A stretch of 47,730 nucleotides of DNA from an uncultured archaeon (GTDB taxonomy: Archaea; Asgardarchaeota; Lokiarchaeia; Sigyniarchaeales; SOKP01), in NCBI GenBank assembly GCA_964632315.1, contig CAZWEM010000037.1, positions 1 to 47,730 on the forward strand, written 5' to 3'. Below are positions 751-28,047 of the stretch, piece by piece (the stretch's first letter is position 1; each line of letters begins with the position of its first letter). Under the pieces are notes generated by a model. It worked only from the letters and a program-made list of their open reading frames with translations, had not been told where the DNA came from and made no database searches. A program made the position numbers and the translations under genes.

Positions 751-1155
751 ATGCTCGATATAATTTTAATTCAACATCCAAAAACTGGATTAAAGCTTTT
801 AGAATACAGGCAAGCGCATACAAAAATAACTTCAATACATGCAGATATATTTAGCGGGTTTATGTCCGCCATACAGAACATCTCAACGGAATTAGATATT
901 GGAACCTTAATTTTATTATCCACTGAAGGCTCAAAAGGCCATAATTGTATAATAGTTCCAAAACCACCAATAAATGTGATACTTTTGGTGGATCAAGAAG
1001 ACCCCGTCGATCTTTGGCGTGAACAAGGGCATCTTATAGCTGATAAATTTCTCAAGACATTTGGGAATCATTTTAATCCTAATGATGTTTCGAGATTTGA
1101 ATCATTTGCTTCGACTATTAAAGATTTATGTTCTACTCATGAATTTTGCGAATAA
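751..1155 (+). CDS. small longin/roadblock-like (profilin-type fold) protein of the Asgard type
   Basis: 134 aa; hydrophobic N-terminal strand plus TGL, and DIFSGFMSAIQNISTEL, the xxSGFxSAI pattern common in Asgard longin-like proteins. Confidence 0.55.
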   Translation: MLDIILIQHPKTGLKLLEYRQAHTKITSIHADIFSGFMSAIQNISTELDIGTLILLSTEGSKGHNCIIVPKPPINVILLVDQEDPVDLWREQGHLIADKFLKTFGNHFNPNDVSRFESFASTIKDLCSTHEFCE

Positions 1156-1169
1156 ATCTAATAACTCCC

Positions 1170-1190
1170 TAAAAAAATATTTAAATTAAT
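1170..1190 (+). promoter_or_regulatory. putative BRE/TATA promoter for the leuS leader transcript
   Basis: An A-run is followed by ATTTAAAT (1179-1186), about 25 nt upstream of the uORF1 ATG at 1208, which would give a near-leaderless transcript. The AT-rich background limits certainty. Confidence 0.4.
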
Positions 1191-1207: not shown

Positions 1208-1291
1208 ATGATCAATAATAACGCTACAAAATTAATTTTAAAGGAATCCATTGCTTTAGATGATTTGCTAGCTTTGTTATTATTGTTATGA
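1208..1291 (+). CDS. putative Leu-rich leader peptide uORF1 of leuS, MINNNATKLILKESIALDDLLALLLLL (27 aa)
   Basis: Translated by hand: 10 Leu in 27 aa; 7 of the last 8 codons are Leu, with 5 consecutive before TGA; located directly upstream of leucyl-tRNA synthetase. Confidence 0.7.
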   Translation: MINNNATKLILKESIALDDLLALLLLL

Positions 1292-1406
1292 AAGGGACAA
1301 ATCCGCTAATACTCTTTCTTTATAATCTGCTTGGATTTGTCCGTTTGGCATGAATGATTATTTAAAAGAGATTTTCGCGTATTTTTCCCTCAAAAATAAC
1401 GGAATC
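1213..1406 (+). promoter_or_regulatory. structured leuS leader with three tandem hairpins
   Basis: CAATAATAAC 1213-1222 pairs with GTTATTATTG 1276-1285 (plus GCTA/TAGC and CAAA/TTTG inside). GGACAAATCC 1295-1304 pairs with GGATTTGTCC 1333-1342. TATTTTT 1380-1386 pairs with AAAAATA 1392-1398, with flanking CG/CG and GATT/AATC. Confidence 0.7.
1288..1353 (+). CDS. putative uORF2, MKGTNPLILFLYNLLGFVRLA (21 aa)
   Basis: ATGA overlap with the uORF1 stop; 6 Leu encoded CTA, CTC, CTT, CTG, CTT, TTG. Confidence 0.5.
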   Translation: MKGTNPLILFLYNLLGFVRLA

Positions 1407-1427
1407 AGGAAAAAAAATTATGTATAA
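1350..1427 (+). CDS. putative uORF3, MNDYLKEIFAYFSLKNNGIRKKNYV (25 aa)
   Basis: ATGA overlap with the uORF2 stop; its TAA (1425-1427) lies just inside leuS (ATGTATAA overlap). Confidence 0.4.
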   Translation: MNDYLKEIFAYFSLKNNGIRKKNYV

Positions 1428-4314
1428 TGCTCATGAAATTGAAAATAAATGGCAGGGGAGATGGCAAAAGTCTAAGATATTTGAGGCTAATCCTAAACCA
1501 GGAACTCAAAAGAAATTCATAACAATCCCATATCCGTACGCTAGTGGTCCACAACACATTGGACATGGAAGGAGTTATGCAAATGGCGATATTTTTGCCC
1601 GATATTATCGAGCAAAAGGATATAACGTCTTACTTCCAATGGCTTTTCACATCACAGGAACTCCCGTATTAGCGATTTCCTCAGCAATCGAACGGCGTGA
1701 TAAGAAGATCATAAAGCGGATGCATCAATATGTCTCTCTTCACACATCAAGCAAGCAAAAAGTGAAAGAAATTGTAGATAGTTTTGTAGATCCTTGGAAT
1801 ATAGTTTATTATTTTTCTGATGCAATTAGAGAAGATTTTATTGCACTCGGAATGAGTATCGATTGGAGGAGACAATTTACCACGGGAGACCCTGTTTATA
1901 ACAAGTTTATAGAATGGCAATTCCAAAAATTAATGGAAAAAGGGTATATAGAAAAGGGAGCATATCCGATCTTGTACTGCCCACGGGATAAGAACGCAGT
2001 AGGGGAGGACGATATAGCGAGCGGAGATGAATTGGATTTAAACATTAATGAGTTTACCTGCATCAAATATCCGTATGAAGATGGATATTTAGTTGCGGCA
2101 ACCCTGAGACCTGAAACTATTTTTGGAGTTACAAATATTTGGATCAATCCTACAGGCACTTATGTTTACGTGAAGATAAAAGGAGAAAAATGGATAATTT
2201 CCGAAGAAGCCATTGCATTGTTTAGGAACCAAGGAAAAAATATCGAAATTTTAGAAAAGTTTCCAGGAAGTATATTAATTGGAAAACAGACGAGTTCTAT
2301 CAGGGGGAGTAGGAAAATGCCAATTCTTCCAGGCGATTTTGTTGATACTTCGACAGCTACTGGCGTAGTCTATTCGGTTCCAGCTCATGCTCCATATGAT
2401 TATATTGCTTTAATTGAATTACAAAAAAATGATAAAATCATTCAACAATATTCTCTTGATAAGGATAAAATCGAGTCAATAAAACCCATAAAAATAATTG
2501 AATTAAAAAATACTAAGGATTTTCCAGCTAAAGAATTCTGCGAAAAATATGGAGTAGAAAGTCAACTAGACAAAGAAAAATTAGATAATGCGACGGCTGA
2601 ATTGTATAAAAGTGAGTTTTACAATGGGATTTTGAATGAGAAATGTGGTAAGTATAGCAATAAACCTGTTAATGAAGCTGTACAAGAAGTAATTCAAGAT
2701 TTAACAGAAGAAGGCAGTGCTGATAGACTATATATCCCCGTGACTCGTGATTTAAGGTGCAGATGCGGTGAAAAAATTATAGTTACCATTTTAGAAGATC
2801 AATGGTTTCTGAATTTTAACGCAGCAGATTGGAAGAAGAAGGCGTTTGATTGCTTAGAGCAAATGCAAATTGTACCGAACAAGTATCGTCAAAACTTCGT
2901 GAATGTTTTTCATTGGTTGGAAAAACGACCCTGCGCAAGGAAAAGAGGATTAGGTACTAAGCTACCCTTTGATAAAAATTGGATAATAGAATCATTGAGT
3001 GACTCAACGATTTACATGAGTTTCTATACGATCATCCATATTATAAATGAGAAATCCATTCAACCAGAACAGCTAATTCCAGAATTTTTTGATTATGTTT
3101 TCCTGAGTATAGGAAAAATTGATGTGGTCTCGGATAAAACAGGTATAAAGAAGGATATTTTAGAAGAGATGCATTCTGAATTTATCTATTGGTATCCTGT
3201 TGATCATAGACACACTGCAATCATGCACATTTCGAACCACTTGAGCTTTTTTATCTTTCACCATGCCGCTATCTTTCAAAAAAAAGATTGGCCAAGATTG
3301 ATAACTCTCATAGAACCAGTTATAGTAGAAGGCCAGAAAATGGGAAAATCAAAAGGTAATCTCATCTCCTTAGCAGAGTTAAGAAAAAACTATTCTATCG
3401 ACCTTTTTAGATTTTATATATCTCATGGAGCAGACTTGGGGGTAAGTGTTGATTGGAGAGAATCAAAGATCAAATCTATTTCAAATCATATTGAGCGCTT
3501 TTATAGCTTTATTACAGATAATCTAAATCAAACTAATATGAAAGACCAAAAGGTCGAATTGGATAAGGAATATCCAAAAGCGATACTGTCTAAAATCTTA
3601 AGATTCTTCATTACCTCTGAAAATGCTTTAAAAGAGTATAACTTGAGGAAATACATCCAAATTGCTTTTTATGAAGTTTTCAACATGCTCCAAGAATTTA
3701 AAAAGTATTCTGATAATAAAGATTTTCAAAGTCTATTTGATATTATTGTATTTGATTGGCTAAAGCTACTCTCATTGGTTATCCCCCACGTTTGTGAAGA
3801 ATTATGGGAAAAAGCCCATAAGGGTAAACCTGGATTCATATCTAATGAAATCTGGGAGCCATTTGACACCAACCTCATAAATGATGATCTTGAATCTAAT
3901 TTTGATTACATTTCAGAGCTTATCGCCGATATCCTCAATATAAAAAAAGTTGTAACCGTACAAGATAACGACGCAATATTTATTTATACTGCTCCTAACT
4001 GGAAGTATGAAGTCCAAGAGAAAATAGTTTCAAATGAAGGAGAATTTAATAAAATTCTTTCAGAATTAAAGCAAGATCAAGAAATAATGAAGAAAAAAGG
4101 ACTCATGCCTTTTATCAAAATGCAAATAAAGAATAGAATATGGGAGAAGAATGGATTTAGTGATAAAGAAGATGAACTTTTATTGAAGTATAAAGAATTC
4201 ATCAAAAAGCGCATTAATCATCCAATAATTATCAATTCAGAACACGATCCTACCAATAAAAAGTCAAAAGCAATTCCCAATAAACCAGCTATATACATTG
4301 GAGAAAAAACATGA
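1420..4314 (+). CDS. leuS: leucyl-tRNA synthetase, archaeal type
   Basis: PYPYASGPQHIGH (HIGH motif), ATLRPET editing-domain motif, TGVVYSVPAHAPYD, KMGKS (KMSKS variant), C-terminal KAIPNKPAIYI. Confidence 0.97.
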   Translation: MYNAHEIENKWQGRWQKSKIFEANPKPGTQKKFITIPYPYASGPQHIGHGRSYANGDIFARYYRAKGYNVLLPMAFHITGTPVLAISSAIERRDKKIIKRMHQYVSLHTSSKQKVKEIVDSFVDPWNIVYYFSDAIREDFIALGMSIDWRRQFTTGDPVYNKFIEWQFQKLMEKGYIEKGAYPILYCPRDKNAVGEDDIASGDELDLNINEFTCIKYPYEDGYLVAATLRPETIFGVTNIWINPTGTYVYVKIKGEKWIISEEAIALFRNQGKNIEILEKFPGSILIGKQTSSIRGSRKMPILPGDFVDTSTATGVVYSVPAHAPYDYIALIELQKNDKIIQQYSLDKDKIESIKPIKIIELKNTKDFPAKEFCEKYGVESQLDKEKLDNATAELYKSEFYNGILNEKCGKYSNKPVNEAVQEVIQDLTEEGSADRLYIPVTRDLRCRCGEKIIVTILEDQWFLNFNAADWKKKAFDCLEQMQIVPNKYRQNFVNVFHWLEKRPCARKRGLGTKLPFDKNWIIESLSDSTIYMSFYTIIHIINEKSIQPEQLIPEFFDYVFLSIGKIDVVSDKTGIKKDILEEMHSEFIYWYPVDHRHTAIMHISNHLSFFIFHHAAIFQKKDWPRLITLIEPVIVEGQKMGKSKGNLISLAELRKNYSIDLFRFYISHGADLGVSVDWRESKIKSISNHIERFYSFITDNLNQTNMKDQKVELDKEYPKAILSKILRFFITSENALKEYNLRKYIQIAFYEVFNMLQEFKKYSDNKDFQSLFDIIVFDWLKLLSLVIPHVCEELWEKAHKGKPGFISNEIWEPFDTNLINDDLESNFDYISELIADILNIKKVVTVQDNDAIFIYTAPNWKYEVQEKIVSNEGEFNKILSELKQDQEIMKKKGLMPFIKMQIKNRIWEKNGFSDKEDELLLKYKEFIKKRINHPIIINSEHDPTNKKSKAIPNKPAIYIGEKT

Positions 4315-23894: not shown

Positions 23895-25937
23895 TTGCCT
23901 AATATTACAGAATTAAAAGAAATTGAAACTTATATTTACCACGCTAATTTCGAAAAAGCACTTGAACTTATTTCGAGTTTGGAAGAAAAAGATACAGCAT
24001 CTAAATTCAATCTGTTACTTTTAATTTTAAAAGGTAGATTATTTTCTTATCAAGAGAAGTATAGGAAGGCAGTAGAATTTGGTGAGAAAGCGATTAGTCT
24101 CAGTCGAGAGTTGGTTCTTCCCGTACAATCCATTGATGCATTATTATTAAAATCAAATAGCGTATTTTTAGGAGATTTAGAATATTCCGTAGATTTTATC
24201 AATCAAGCAGAAAAATTAATTAATTTGACTTATGAAAATCCTGCATTAGATGCACCCAGACAATATTCTGATTTTTTAACAATGAAGTTTATCATTCTTC
24301 GTTATGCAAGTAATCTTAAGGAATCTTTTAAAATATTTAATGAGTGGCTTTCGCTATTTGAAGATTCCAGTGAAGAAATTGATAAGTCTAAGGTTTATAT
24401 ACAAATAAGTGAATCTTATTTATACGACAGTAAAGTAAATATCGCATTAGATTATGCTAAAAGAAGTCTTGATATACAGAAGAATTTAGAAAATAAAATT
24501 GGTATCGCATCAAGTTTATACAGCATTGGACAGAGTCATTTTGTTATGGGTGAAATTGAAGAGAGTTTAGATTACTTTAGAAAAGGCCTATCTTTTCCGG
24601 AAATAAGTGTTTTGACTAAACTTGAAGCAATGCATATGACTGGGGCAGTTTTCAAAGAAAAAGGTGAGATAAATCGGGCATTAAGATATTATAAACGATC
24701 AGTAGATTTAGCTAGAAAAGAAGGATATCGGGAAAAATTAGCTAGTCTTATGATGAGTATTGGAACAATATATCGAATGAAAGGGGAATCTAATATAGCA
24801 ACTGAATATTTAAATCAGAGTTTACATTTATGCAGGGAAATAAATTCTTTATATGGCATTTCAGTAAACCTATTTTATTTGATACTAATTTATCTCGAAA
24901 AAGATTTAATTACAGATGCTCAAGCATACTTGTTAAAATTAGAAAAAACAGTAAAACAAACTCAAAGTAGTCAATGGTTTTACTTATATGAGCTAGCTAG
25001 AGCTTTAATTTTTAAGAAAACAAAGAGATTAAAGGCTCATTCAGAAGCAGAAACTATCTTAAAAGAAATCATTGAAAATGGGCTTAATTTAACTCCACAA
25101 CTTCGTTTTTTAACCATTATAAATTTATGTGATTTACTTATAGAAGAGCTAGCAATCACTAATAACGATGAAATTTTAAAAGAATTGACACCTCTGATAA
25201 ATCAGTTGTTAAATTTAGTTAAAAATGCAAACTCTTATCTTTGGTTAGCAGAAACACGACTTCTTCAAGCAAAATTGGCATTAATTCAAATGAATATACG
25301 AGATGCTAAAAAATTGATGGTAGAAGCACAGATGATAGCAGATATCCACGGCCTTAATTTATTAGCAATAAAAATCTCAAATGAACACGACTCCCTTTTA
25401 GATCAATCGCGTTTATGGGATGAGTTGTTACAGACTGCTGCCCCTTACTCGGAAAGAATTAAACTGGCTTCGATAGATGGATTGATCTCTCAAATGCAAG
25501 GTAAAAAACCTCTAGAAGAATTACACGTTATTGATGAAACACCAATATTGTTGTTAATTATGAGCAAAGATGGAATACCCCATTTTACTCATTCATTTAG
25601 AAAAGACTGGGATTTTGAATTCCTATTTAGTTCATTCTTATCAGCATTTAATTCGTTTAGCTCTGAAATTTTTTCAAAAACAATTGATAGAATAAAAATT
25701 GGAGAAAATAAGATTCTTATTAATCCAATTAAAACTTACTTAATATGTTATGTCATTCAAGGGCAATCTTATCCAGCACAAAAGAAATTATATCAATTTA
25801 CTAGGGAAATTGAACAAAATCCTGATATTCTATTAGCTTTAAAACGATCTGTTAAAACATGTCGCTCTTTAGATCTAGATAATACTCCAATGTTAGGTTC
25901 TGTTGTTAGAAAGATTTTTCCTCAAGTAAAGATATAG
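23895..25937 (+). CDS. TPR-repeat protein with C-terminal longin-like domain
   Basis: TPR repeats (ALDYAKRSL..., SIGQSHFVMGEIEESLDYFRKGL); C-terminal LLLIMSKDG...LFSSFLSAFNSFSSEIF resembles the 751..1155 protein. Confidence 0.8.
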   Translation: MPNITELKEIETYIYHANFEKALELISSLEEKDTASKFNLLLLILKGRLFSYQEKYRKAVEFGEKAISLSRELVLPVQSIDALLLKSNSVFLGDLEYSVDFINQAEKLINLTYENPALDAPRQYSDFLTMKFIILRYASNLKESFKIFNEWLSLFEDSSEEIDKSKVYIQISESYLYDSKVNIALDYAKRSLDIQKNLENKIGIASSLYSIGQSHFVMGEIEESLDYFRKGLSFPEISVLTKLEAMHMTGAVFKEKGEINRALRYYKRSVDLARKEGYREKLASLMMSIGTIYRMKGESNIATEYLNQSLHLCREINSLYGISVNLFYLILIYLEKDLITDAQAYLLKLEKTVKQTQSSQWFYLYELARALIFKKTKRLKAHSEAETILKEIIENGLNLTPQLRFLTIINLCDLLIEELAITNNDEILKELTPLINQLLNLVKNANSYLWLAETRLLQAKLALIQMNIRDAKKLMVEAQMIADIHGLNLLAIKISNEHDSLLDQSRLWDELLQTAAPYSERIKLASIDGLISQMQGKKPLEELHVIDETPILLLIMSKDGIPHFTHSFRKDWDFEFLFSSFLSAFNSFSSEIFSKTIDRIKIGENKILINPIKTYLICYVIQGQSYPAQKKLYQFTREIEQNPDILLALKRSVKTCRSLDLDNTPMLGSVVRKIFPQVKI

Positions 25938-25999
25938 AAGATCATACATATTATCCTTTTATAATTCAAAATATTATATCAAGAATAGGAGGATCTAGC

Positions 26000-26344
26000 T
26001 TGATTATAGAATGGAAAAAGTGTGAAAAATGTGGATTTTTACAACATCCAACTCATCTTAGATGTTTAAGGTGCAAGAGTCAAAAATTTACACCCTTGAG
26101 AAATGAAGGTGAAGCTAAATTAATAACCTATACCATTTTAACTGCACCCCCAGCCGAATTTAGAAAGAAAAACTCCTATGCTTTAGGAGTAGTAGAGTTT
26201 GAGAATGGTATAAAAGCTTTAGGTCAAATAGAAAATGAAGGAAATTTAGTGCTTGGTATGAAAATGAGTGCATTTCAAAAGAAAATTTGTGAGAATTTAG
26301 ATGGCCAAGAAGTTATTGATTATGTTTTTAAACCAATCGAATAA
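26000..26344 (+). CDS. DUF35 family Zn-ribbon/OB-fold protein
   Basis: KCEKCG...RCLRC followed by an OB-fold pattern (TYT...YALGVVEFENG.KALGQ); GGAGG RBS. Confidence 0.88.
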   Translation: MIIEWKKCEKCGFLQHPTHLRCLRCKSQKFTPLRNEGEAKLITYTILTAPPAEFRKKNSYALGVVEFENGIKALGQIENEGNLVLGMKMSAFQKKICENLDGQEVIDYVFKPIE

Positions 26345-26361
26345 AATAGCTATAATATTGA

Positions 26362-28047
26362 GTGATTAAGATGTTTTCGAAAGAGAATATTAAAAAAATT
26401 GAAGAAGAACGTAAAAATTGGGAAAATAATGTCTTAAAACCCGCTACGGAGAATGGCGAACGAAAAAAACAATTCGAATCTCCCTCAGGAATTCCATTAA
26501 AACCATTATATGGACCAGAAGATGTTCAAGAAATGGATTATATTAATGACTTAGGATTTCCTGGATCACCTCCATTCACAAGAGGTGTATATCCTAACAT
26601 GTATCGAGGAAGAGTCTGGACGATGCGACAATATGCGGGATTTGCTGATGCTGAAAAAACTAATGAACGGTTCAAATATTTAATTTCACAAGGTCAAAAA
26701 GGACTTTCAATTGCTTTCGATTTACCTACTCAGATGGGATTTAATTCTGATAGTCAAATTTGTTTAGGAGAAGTGGGGAGAGTAGGGGTTACCGTTAATA
26801 CTTTATACGATTTTGAAAAAGTATTTGAAGGAATCCCTTTAAATAAAGTATCTACCAGTATGACTATTAATGCCCCTGCTTCAGTGCTTTTAGCTATGTA
26901 CATCGCAGTGGGAGAGAAACAGGGTGTAAAACCTGAATTATTGATGGGCACAGTTCAAAATGATATCCTAAAAGAATACGTGGCGCGAGGTACTTATATC
27001 TTTCCTCCAGGGCCTTCTTTGCGATTAGTCGCAGATGTTATTGAATATTGTTCAAATCACCTACCAAGATTTAATACAATCTCAATAAGTGGATATCACA
27101 TGAGAGAAGCGGGTTGTAGTGCAGTTCAAGAGATTGCTTTTACTATAGCTGATGGAATAGCATACGTACAAGAGGTTATCAAAAGAGGAATTGATATCGA
27201 TGATTTTGCTCTCCGATTATCATTCTTTTTTACAACCCATTCCAATTTTTTCGAAGAAATTGCGAAATTAAGAGCTGCAAGGCGTCTATGGGCAAAAATT
27301 ATGAAAGAAAGATTTAAAGCAAAAAATACTAATTCCCAACGCTTAAGATTCCATACTCAAACTGCAGGAGTAACGTTAACAGCCCAACAACCAAATGTGA
27401 ATATTATTAGAGTTACGGTAGAGGCTTTAGCTGCTATTTTAGGTGGAACTCAATCACTTCATACTTGTGGAGCTGATGAAGCTCTGTCTCTTCCAACAGA
27501 AGATTCCGTAAGAATTTCTTTAAGGACACAACAAGTATTAGCAAATGAATCTGGGGTTACTGACGTCGTGGATCCACTTGGAGGTTCATACTACATCGAA
27601 TATCTTACAACTCAACTTGAAGAAAAAGCTATGGAGTACATTAACAAAATTGATGATATGGGTGGTATAACAAGAGCAATAGAAACTGGATTCATTCAAC
27701 AAGAAGTTCTGAATAATGCATATAAAGAACAATTAAAAATTGAGAGTAGAGAAACCAACATTATAGGAGTGAATACCTATTGTACTGATGAAGAATGTAA
27801 GATCAACACATTCAAACACGATAAAGATGAAGAGAAACGAATTATTGACAATTTGAACAATTTCAAGCAAGAGAGAGATGAAAAATTAATAAAAGAAGCT
27901 TTAAATAAACTAGAAAAGGTCGCAAGAACTAACGATAACATAATGCCCGTGATGATTGAAACTGTAAAAGCATATGCAACTATACAAGAGATATGCGATG
28001 CTTTAAGAGAAGTGTATGGAGTTTATGAAAGTCCTCAGGTTTTTTAG
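26362..28047 (+). CDS. methylmalonyl-CoA mutase family, large (substrate-binding) subunit
   Basis: PFTRGVYPNMY, WTMRQYAGF, QNDILKEY, SISGYH; no B12-binding domain; the start may be ATG 26371. Confidence 0.95.
   Translation: MIKMFSKENIKKIEEERKNWENNVLKPATENGERKKQFESPSGIPLKPLYGPEDVQEMDYINDLGFPGSPPFTRGVYPNMYRGRVWTMRQYAGFADAEKTNERFKYLISQGQKGLSIAFDLPTQMGFNSDSQICLGEVGRVGVTVNTLYDFEKVFEGIPLNKVSTSMTINAPASVLLAMYIAVGEKQGVKPELLMGTVQNDILKEYVARGTYIFPPGPSLRLVADVIEYCSNHLPRFNTISISGYHMREAGCSAVQEIAFTIADGIAYVQEVIKRGIDIDDFALRLSFFFTTHSNFFEEIAKLRAARRLWAKIMKERFKAKNTNSQRLRFHTQTAGVTLTAQQPNVNIIRVTVEALAAILGGTQSLHTCGADEALSLPTEDSVRISLRTQQVLANESGVTDVVDPLGGSYYIEYLTTQLEEKAMEYINKIDDMGGITRAIETGFIQQEVLNNAYKEQLKIESRETNIIGVNTYCTDEECKINTFKHDKDEEKRIIDNLNNFKQERDEKLIKEALNKLEKVARTNDNIMPVMIETVKAYATIQEICDALREVYGVYESPQVF

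Follow-up and report, generated by a model that had tools for sequence, protein, structure and literature searches.

The DNA analysed here (the window) is a stretch of 47,730 nucleotides (nt) on contig CAZWEM010000037.1 of an uncultured Lokiarchaeia genome (GCA_964632315.1; 4.45 Mb, 33% G+C). The subject of this report is the intergenic region 1156-1419, which separates an open reading frame (ORF) of 134 amino acids (aa) from leuS, the gene of a 964-aa archaeal-type leucyl-tRNA synthetase (LeuRS2). The synthetase was identified by HIGH and KMSKS-like motifs in its translation, by Pfam, and by a score of 930.8 bits with the NCBIfam profile leuS_arch, whose cut-off is 648.5. A second LeuRS, of bacterial type, is encoded on a different contig of the same genome. 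The intergenic region contains three short frames on the forward strand, at 1208-1291 (27 aa, ending LLALLLLL), 1288-1353 and 1350-1427; in this genome the frames overlap by ATGA, ATGA and ATGTATAA. All results presented here are computational. They suggest, with moderate probability, that the leuS leader is an amino-acid-specific switch that is read by the ribosome and decides between two helices, A:B and A:D, and thus is a leader-peptide attenuator in the broad sense. The features of the locus are:

1171 to 1186, forward strand: promoter-like element, an A-rich run resembling a B recognition element, then a TATA-like box (ATATTTAAAT)
1208 to 1291, forward strand: first upstream ORF (uORF1), the putative leader peptide, 27 codons, MINNNATKLILKESIALDDLLALLLLL, then TGA
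1208 to 1289, forward strand: hairpin H1, with the start and Asn codons in its 5' strand (1208-1226) and the Leu run in its 3' strand (1268-1289)
1265 to 1288, forward strand: putative regulatory codon run, TTG CTA GCT TTG TTA TTA TTG TTA = L L A L L L L L
1295 to 1306, forward strand: segment A, the 5' arm of hairpin P1, GGACAAATCCGC; in this genome its start is 3 nt past the stop codon
1307 to 1328, forward strand: T-rich loop of P1, which contains element U (CTCTTT, 1312-1317); its core CTTTTTCT is nearly invariant
1329 to 1342, forward strand: segment B, the 3' arm of P1, GC..GGATTTGTCC
1365 to 1370, forward strand: box C, AAAGAG (GAAAGAG in relatives), the partner of loop element U
1377 to 1389, forward strand: segment D, GCGTATTTTTCCC, the alternative partner of A; it overlaps a third hairpin noted earlier
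1408 to 1422, forward strand: weak Shine-Dalgarno-like GGAAAAA, then the leuS ATG
1420 to 4314, forward strand: leuS, coding for LeuRS2

Most genomes of the genus encode an orthologue of LeuRS2 (61-73% identity), and the upstream regions of these genes can be aligned over about 230 nt. These leaders have in common a frame with a Leu-rich end, a hairpin with a T-rich loop directly after it, and then the GAAAGAG box. In all 37 aligned upstream regions, TTTATA(A/T)A or TTTAAAT starts about 35 nt 5' of the uORF1 ATG. The centre of the TATA-like box lies about 27 nt 5' of this ATG in the window, and the spacing is the same in the 37 leaders. Given this spacing, the leader mRNA is probably leaderless and starts within a few nucleotides of the uORF1 ATG; the first ribosome to follow the polymerase would then translate uORF1.

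The frame of uORF1 is open in 37 of 37 leaders of the genus (27-32 codons) and in 39 of 40 further loci. For 21 non-redundant leaders, no stop was counted in 607 codons of this frame, compared to 85 and 40 stops in the other two frames. Length differences are whole codons only. The stop codon itself varies (TAA in 19, TGA in 14 and TAG in four leaders), and the first strong pair of P1 follows it after 0-1 nt in 36 of 37 cases. Across leader types, the N-terminus M-I-S-N-N-T-A and a hydrophobic C-terminus are conserved, and the middle of the peptide is variable. The absence of stops, the indels of whole codons and the fixed stop position indicate that uORF1 is maintained by selection, and we infer that it is translated.

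The RNA that follows uORF1 is conserved as a structure. Hairpin P1 (1295-1306/1329-1342) has a folding energy of -17.1 kcal/mol with a z-score of -4.09, and none of 200 shuffled sequences folded as well. Its 14 base pairs (bp) are formed to 88.8% in the 37 sequences, and P1 covaries, seven of the pairs having changed on both sides. The P1 loops consist of 65% T; a T run of at least five occurs in 31 of 37 loops and two T runs of at least four in 28 of 37. P1 was the only helix called by RNAalifold, for the whole leader as well as for leaders with uORFs of equal length. RNAalifold is blind to the other helices because their register shifts between clades, and per-sequence duplex swap tests were therefore used. 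Here, the duplex energy of a segment with its own partner was compared to the energies with the partners from other leaders, for the 21 non-redundant leaders. With this test, the A:B duplex reached -18.1 kcal/mol for own partners and -14.1 kcal/mol for swapped ones (p<0.0005).

Segment A has a second partner. For the A:D duplex the energies were -13.4 (own) and -11.2 kcal/mol (swapped), with p<0.001. The U:C helix between the P1 loop and box C is paired to 84.5% in the 37 sequences, one of its pairs runs through the series C-G, U-G, U-A, and blocking the 5' arm of P1 makes it the consensus helix. Its swap test gave -7.7 versus -6.8 kcal/mol (p=0.002, all leaders). Folded together in the segment 1289-1392, A:D and U:C reach -26.7 kcal/mol (z -3.17), compared to the -17.1 kcal/mol of P1 alone. 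What really competes with P1 is A:D, stacked on U:C. A:B and A:D both co-evolve; sharing segment A, they are mutually exclusive helices, and the position of a ribosome could choose between them. The T/C-rich 3' half of segment D is also able to pair with the Shine-Dalgarno-like GGAAAAA, that is, with the ribosome binding site (RBS) of leuS; in 11 non-overlapping cases the D:RBS energies, which are weak, were -7.75 (own) and -5.92 kcal/mol (swapped), with p=0.003. For five control pairs of segments (B:DE, S0:DE, S0:B, B:RBS and U:RBS) none of the swap tests was significant.

Hairpin H1 within uORF1 folds with -20.6 kcal/mol (z -3.74; 0 of 200 shuffles as good). When codons 2-7 were paired with the tail of the frame, cognate combinations had -14.2 and non-cognate ones -10.7 kcal/mol (p<0.0005). 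A count in fixed alignment columns gave 82% paired positions with weak covariation; it was not better than in shuffles (53/500), and the score was nearly equal when one strand was slid by one codon, which is due to the UUA repeats. As an example of covariation, the change AAU→AAA on one side of the helix goes together with GUG→GUU on the opposite side. Pairing with the codons of (L)AVLL in H1 accounts for the conserved codons of NNTA.

These results bear on the original prediction, which had been derived from the letters of this single stretch and assigned each of the three short frames a hairpin of its own. Two of its stems were recovered exactly: 1213-1222 (CAATAATAAC) is the reverse complement of 1276-1285 within H1, which is longer than had been noted, and 1295-1304 (GGACAAATCC) is that of 1333-1342 within P1. 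Two perfect 10-mer complements are present in 223 nt, where 0.10 are expected from shuffles. All related leaders that were sampled contain the uORF1 hairpin and the one that follows its stop, and both hairpins fold better than shuffled sequences. The third stem (1380-1386/1392-1398) can form seven bp, all of them A-T pairs, but with -3.6 kcal/mol its z-score is -0.98, and the uORF3 region as a whole is unstructured (z +0.91). An ATG for uORF2 was found in 10 of 37 related leaders, and only where the stop of uORF1 reads TTATGA; a uORF3-like frame is restricted to this genome and one relative (2/37). The conserved unit is therefore uORF1 with its RNA and not a set of three uORFs.

The two competing pairings that had been proposed, GATTTG with CAAATC (1262-1267/1298-1303) and GTTATT with AATAAC (1276-1281/1395-1400), are complementary as claimed but do not co-vary in relatives. 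No cognate advantage was found for the former (tested as S1up:A, p=0.45) or for the latter (tested as S1:DE and tail:E2, p=0.69 and 0.9), and complements of 6 bp are common in the leader (27 seen, 14 expected from shuffles). As judged from the related leaders, the third hairpin, uORF2, uORF3 and both 6-bp pairings are local chance features. The more general proposal of a structural switch that is set by ribosome position fares better: an open frame, a stop that abuts a covarying hairpin, a second partner of arm A and a codon run that follows the downstream gene all agree with it. Its parts have to be replaced, however; the three uORF hairpins and the 6-bp pairings give way to P1 in competition with A:D (1295-1306/1377-1389) and U:C (1312-1317/1365-1370).

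Searches for known elements gave the following picture. As had been noted before, there is no T-tract after the P1 stem, where the sequence reads GTTTGG or is variable, and no bacterial-type terminator was found in 1100-1500. The leader region contains no tRNA gene. No Rfam family reached its gathering score in the window, the matches in 1150-1450 being at chance level (E up to 1), and the covariance models of Leu_leader (RF00512) and of the T-box (RF00230) did not match the leader.

The folding of the 21 leaders was modelled for several states. In transcripts cut after segment B, P1 had a modelled pair probability of 0.77. At full length and equilibrium this value dropped to 0.20 (median 0.02), and A was paired downstream instead with a probability of 0.54. 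The free ensemble was about 6 kcal/mol more stable in the model than the ensemble with P1 enforced, for which reason P1 would be a co-transcriptional trap in most leaders. With a ribosomal footprint of 30 nt and the A site on the last sense codon, the predicted probability was 0.00 for P1 and 0.68 (median 0.99) for U:C. The window around the RBS was predicted to be unpaired to 0.48 when P1 was enforced and to 0.66 when A was free for D (Wilcoxon p=2e-5, not corrected for relatedness). The models thus lend modest support to RBS masking as the output of the switch. A plain sequestration of the RBS that is relieved by a ribosome stalled on the run was also considered and rejected; modelled RBS accessibility did not rise consistently.

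The distribution of the element was determined by means of a covariance model built from the Leu run through the GAAAGAG box. It was found in 33 of 42 genomes of the genus and, spread over eight genera, in 91 of 131 genomes of one family of Promethearchaeota. None of 19 genomes from three other families of the same order contained it, and the more distant LeuRS2 orthologues of two other genera (45% identity) are without such a leader. A scan of contigs with an exact pattern proved too unspecific and returned mostly chance matches in bacteria. Among 77 loci examined, a leader ORF was called at 76. The tails, i.e. the last eight residues of the leader peptides, sort by downstream gene as follows:

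LeuRS2, 37 loci: 69% Leu, 0% Ile
archaeal LeuRS (LeuRS3, 39% identical to LeuRS2), 2 loci: 56% Leu
bacterial-type LeuRS, 2 loci: ...KVLLLLL; 69% Leu, 0% Ile
FrhB-TrmB, 16 loci: 42-56% Ile, 23-38% Val
acyl-CoA dehydrogenase, 2 loci: ...SVVVVDVVVVLL (56% Val)
45-aa ORF with a strong GGAGGT Shine-Dalgarno site, 10 loci: 56% Val, 39% Leu
ORF of about 60 aa, 3 loci: 62% Leu, 38% Val
weak family members, 4 loci: no clear run

Leu-rich tails without Ile (56-69% Leu) are thus present at 41 of 41 LeuRS loci, which represent three LeuRS lineages. Where the downstream gene changes, the codon run is the only feature of the leader that changes with it. The same RNA core stands before unrelated genes and a Leu run before three lineages of LeuRS; no other finding speaks as strongly for a reading of the codons themselves.

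The genome studied here contains a second copy of the element on another contig. It encodes MVSNNTATRIMVRKLLSIIIIIVVVIII, and the gene downstream of it codes for a 4Fe-4S domain fused to FrhB and a TrmB-type helix-turn-helix domain. This FrhB-TrmB gene (L067:1171-2595; L062:1244-1834 in this genome) is monocistronic and codes for a 4Fe-4S ferredoxin domain, the N and C domains of FrhB and a C-terminal TrmB winged helix; the product may be a redox-sensing transcription regulator. A DsbA-like gene is oriented divergently from it. Among the neighbours (DsbA-like, AAA ATPase, TPR) no tie to the metabolism of Ile or Val was seen. The 45-aa ORF is conserved about 150 nt after Val-run leaders (L207-L221; genera g15, g16, g17, g18, g22 and g23), has the pattern M-T-x-I-...-F-x-x-PAE-...-IAW and no Pfam match, and is always convergent with a gene for a class I/II aminotransferase. 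The weak members (L224, L225, L229 and L205) lack a homo-amino-acid run, e.g. ..YKRAFIPDLVVL, and precede ORFs of 55-62 aa (..LDYYKDW..) that seemingly have non-ATG starts after a GGAGGTG site.

One further leader of this genome is of relevance. On contig C2 (154319-154429, forward strand) there is a small ORF (sORF) of 36 codons that ends with LSILLLLGSLNLFLLLL and is followed about 6 nt after its stop by a hairpin, CCCTCTTCCC...GGGAAGAG. It lies 129 nt upstream of a gene similar to that of 2-isopropylmalate synthase (leuA-like; DTTLRDGEQ motif). This is a second Leu-run leader of the genome, and it is unrelated to the leuS element.

These findings are consistent with the following mechanism. 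Transcription would start within a few bases of the uORF1 ATG, and, with the polymerase still at work on the leader, the first ribosome would translate the frame of 27 codons. P1 (A:B) would be the first helix to form because B is transcribed ahead of D. In this state, the U-rich loop would be exposed and D would be available for masking the weak leuS RBS. If charged tRNA-Leu is scarce, the last Leu codons would be decoded slowly; because the stop of the Leu run touches the base of P1, the slow ribosome would sit on the lower half of A and hold P1 open. The loop could then pair with the GAAAGAG box and, after departure of the ribosome, A could pair with D. This long-range fold is the more stable one in the models; it would hide the U-tract and free the RBS, and more LeuRS2 would be made. 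The sister copies with Ile/Val or Val runs would be the same device on other genes. The direction of the response and the output step are presumed parts of this scheme.

Its polarity might also be the reverse. In that case, the T5 and T4 tracts of the P1 loop would be a U-tract terminator for aCPSF1/FttA, and expression would rise with the supply of the amino acid. A ribosome that follows the polymerase closely up to the stop of uORF1 would shield the RNA and allow read-through, and an early stall at a Leu codon would uncouple the two and lead to termination in the loop. Archaeal termination by U-tracts and aCPSF1/FttA does not need a hairpin (PMC8716108, PMC11616081). No letters of the leader are more invariant than the T-tracts, which, as stated above, are long in 31 of 37 loops, and P1 has no trailing T-tract. 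Moreover, a ribosome stalled at one of the earlier Leu codons does not cover arm A and would not open P1, and the Val-run leaders before acyl-CoA dehydrogenases would suit a catabolism that is induced by supply. On the other hand, all charging-dependent controls of aminoacyl-tRNA synthetase genes that are known to us, such as those of pheST and the T-boxes, are induced by shortage. Induction by supply would also make little sense for the Leu-run leader before the leuA-like biosynthetic gene, and it leaves the co-evolving competition of A:B and A:D and the D:RBS signal without a role. We therefore consider supply induction unlikely; within the general model, induction by shortage is moderately favoured, on account of the known synthetase controls and of the leuA-like gene of this genome.

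Explanations without ribosome-mediated sensing of an amino acid appear less plausible still. The conservation of the frame, of M-I-S-N-N-T-A and of the hydrophobic C-terminus across types would also be expected if the product of uORF1 were a small hydrophobic peptide with a function, such as one associated with the membrane, and if the hairpins were ordinary structures of a 5' untranslated region or served the peptide's own control. It is difficult to reconcile with this idea that the codons of the N-terminus can pair with those of the tail and co-vary with them in H1, which explains their conservation at the level of RNA, and that the middle of the peptide varies. The hydrophobic stretch of about 10-14 residues, interrupted by Asp in the Leu type, is too short to span a membrane, and hydrophobicity alone does not account for 0% Ile in 41 LeuRS leaders and 42-56% Ile in the FrhB-TrmB leaders. 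A functional peptide is thus quite improbable. At least as improbable is an RNA (P1, the U:C pseudoknot and D) that binds a protein or a small ligand, i.e. an autoregulatory operator of LeuRS or a riboswitch with an incidental uORF1. It would account for the nearly invariant loop and for the conserved, pseudoknot-like helix from loop to downstream box, and the lack of a match to a known RNA family would agree with it. However, the same core precedes LeuRS, FrhB-TrmB, acyl-CoA dehydrogenases and small ORFs, which speaks against an operator specific for LeuRS; an incidental frame would have acquired stops within 607 codons and lost the fixed position of its end at the base of P1; and what varies with the downstream gene is solely the codon run. 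The version of the original prediction, in which three coupled uORFs with a hairpin each relay ribosomes to the start of leuS, could draw on the overlaps of the frames in this genome. With the rarity of the uORF2 start and of the uORF3-like frame and the unstructured uORF3 region, it is very improbable.

A number of observations weigh against the ribosome-read switch itself. H1 pairing constrains both part of the Leu run and the NNTA codons, so that codon identity is not free evidence for selection on the peptide. The changes in U:C are mostly one-sided, and for the Leu type alone the swap test is not significant (p=0.15); swap tests and shuffles in general correct for relatedness only partly. 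In a few leaders (L039, L045) P1 is also the equilibrium fold. The modelled effect on the RBS is modest, and a ribosome on arm A leaves the RBS unpaired to 0.50, no more open than in the P1 state. FrhB-TrmB, the ORFs of 45-60 aa and the dehydrogenases have no established link to Ile or Val, and the four weak family members are without a clear codon run. Finally, we infer the start of transcription, the translation of uORF1 and the response to leucine.

Two further observations concern genes around and beyond the leader. The 134-aa ORF immediately 5' of the leader (751-1155, forward strand) matches no Pfam family; the C-terminal end ..CSTHE(F/Y)C(E/D) is kept upstream of LeuRS2 in several relatives. 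The gene for the bacterial-type LeuRS of this genome (contig C41, about 25,900-26,600, minus strand) carries an in-frame insertion of 30 nt with a TAA stop. The insertion is also conserved in three relatives (L232, L233 and L234), with the pattern ..PMGYD-S/C-I/V-SQ*-V/G/E-KYHKS-FGLPAEN; a fifth species (L235) reads PMGYDSFGLPAEN and has no insertion. The insertion may reflect a split gene, a small intron or a site of read-through, and it bears on the question of which LeuRS is the housekeeping enzyme.

In a full-text literature search no archaeal leader-peptide attenuator was found, and an archaeal ribosome-profiling paper mentions uORFs descriptively only. We incline, if by a small measure, to the view that the element is a case of ribosome-mediated sensing of amino acids in Archaea. 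It would be a modular, leaderless leader-peptide switch of one Asgard (Promethearchaeota) family, placed before at least seven kinds of genes and reading Leu, Ile/Val or Val, and hence a "ribulon" of the branched-chain amino acids. It would combine a kinetically trapped hairpin and a long-range fold with an archaeal output (RBS masking and/or a U-tract for aCPSF1/FttA) and do without a bacterial intrinsic terminator. If this is true, archaeal leaderless mRNAs can carry regulatory first ORFs, and one device has been redeployed with an altered codon run before synthetases and before redox or catabolic genes. The start codon, the codon run and the segments A, B, C and D are parts that can be mutated in order to study how archaeal translation and termination factors interact with the folding of RNA.

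In bacteria, attenuation by leader peptides is textbook knowledge, and it depends on the coupling of transcription and translation. The bacterial examples (E. coli pheM-pheST, leuL and ilvL; predicted attenuators of Streptomyces leuS, PMC1262725) likewise have a short ORF with codons for the amino acid of the downstream gene, which overlaps or abuts RNA segments with mutually exclusive partners. In these systems, too, an early local hairpin is opposed to an alternative fold, and the device is reused with different codon runs. The attenuators predicted for Streptomyces leuS are induced by shortage (PMC1262725). The archaeal leader differs in its host, in an apparently leaderless mRNA, and in having no relationship by sequence or Rfam to the bacterial ones; its run is at the very end of the ORF, and the stop is at the foot of the hairpin. 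Classical transcription attenuators (trpL, leuL) possess a GC-rich stem and a U-tract terminator, which the leuS leader lacks; its T-tracts are inside the loop.

Firmicutes have backup synthetase genes led by T-boxes, of which thrZ of B. subtilis is reportedly an example. There, as in the genome studied here, a second synthetase copy stands under a leader that could report the charging of tRNA. T-boxes, however, read uncharged tRNA directly and need no translation, and no T-box was detected in the leuS leader.

With respect to archaeal termination by U-tracts and aCPSF1 (FttA), the conserved T5 and T4 tracts about 20-35 nt after the stop of uORF1 resemble its signals (PMC8716108, PMC11616081). 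Unlike plain U-tract terminators, they are located in the loop of a covarying hairpin and pair with a downstream box. To our knowledge, a use of an archaeal U-tract terminator that is conditional on the ribosome has not been described.

The closest design is that of the leaderless polycysteine sORFs of mycobacteria, a kind of translational attenuator (bioRxiv 10.1101/834739), in which a leaderless first sORF contains a tract of codons for one amino acid. A ribosome stalled on this tract has been proposed to block a structure that sequesters the RBS, and several such loci form a ribosome-directed regulon (bioRxiv 10.1101/834739). A design shared by several loci is common to both families. In contrast to the polycysteine tract, the Leu tract is not itself the partner of the RBS (the S1:RBS swap test was not significant), and the signal would pass through the three-way competition of A:B, A:D and D:RBS. 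The targets differ as well: they are a biosynthetic pathway in mycobacteria and include synthetases in the family of the leuS leader.

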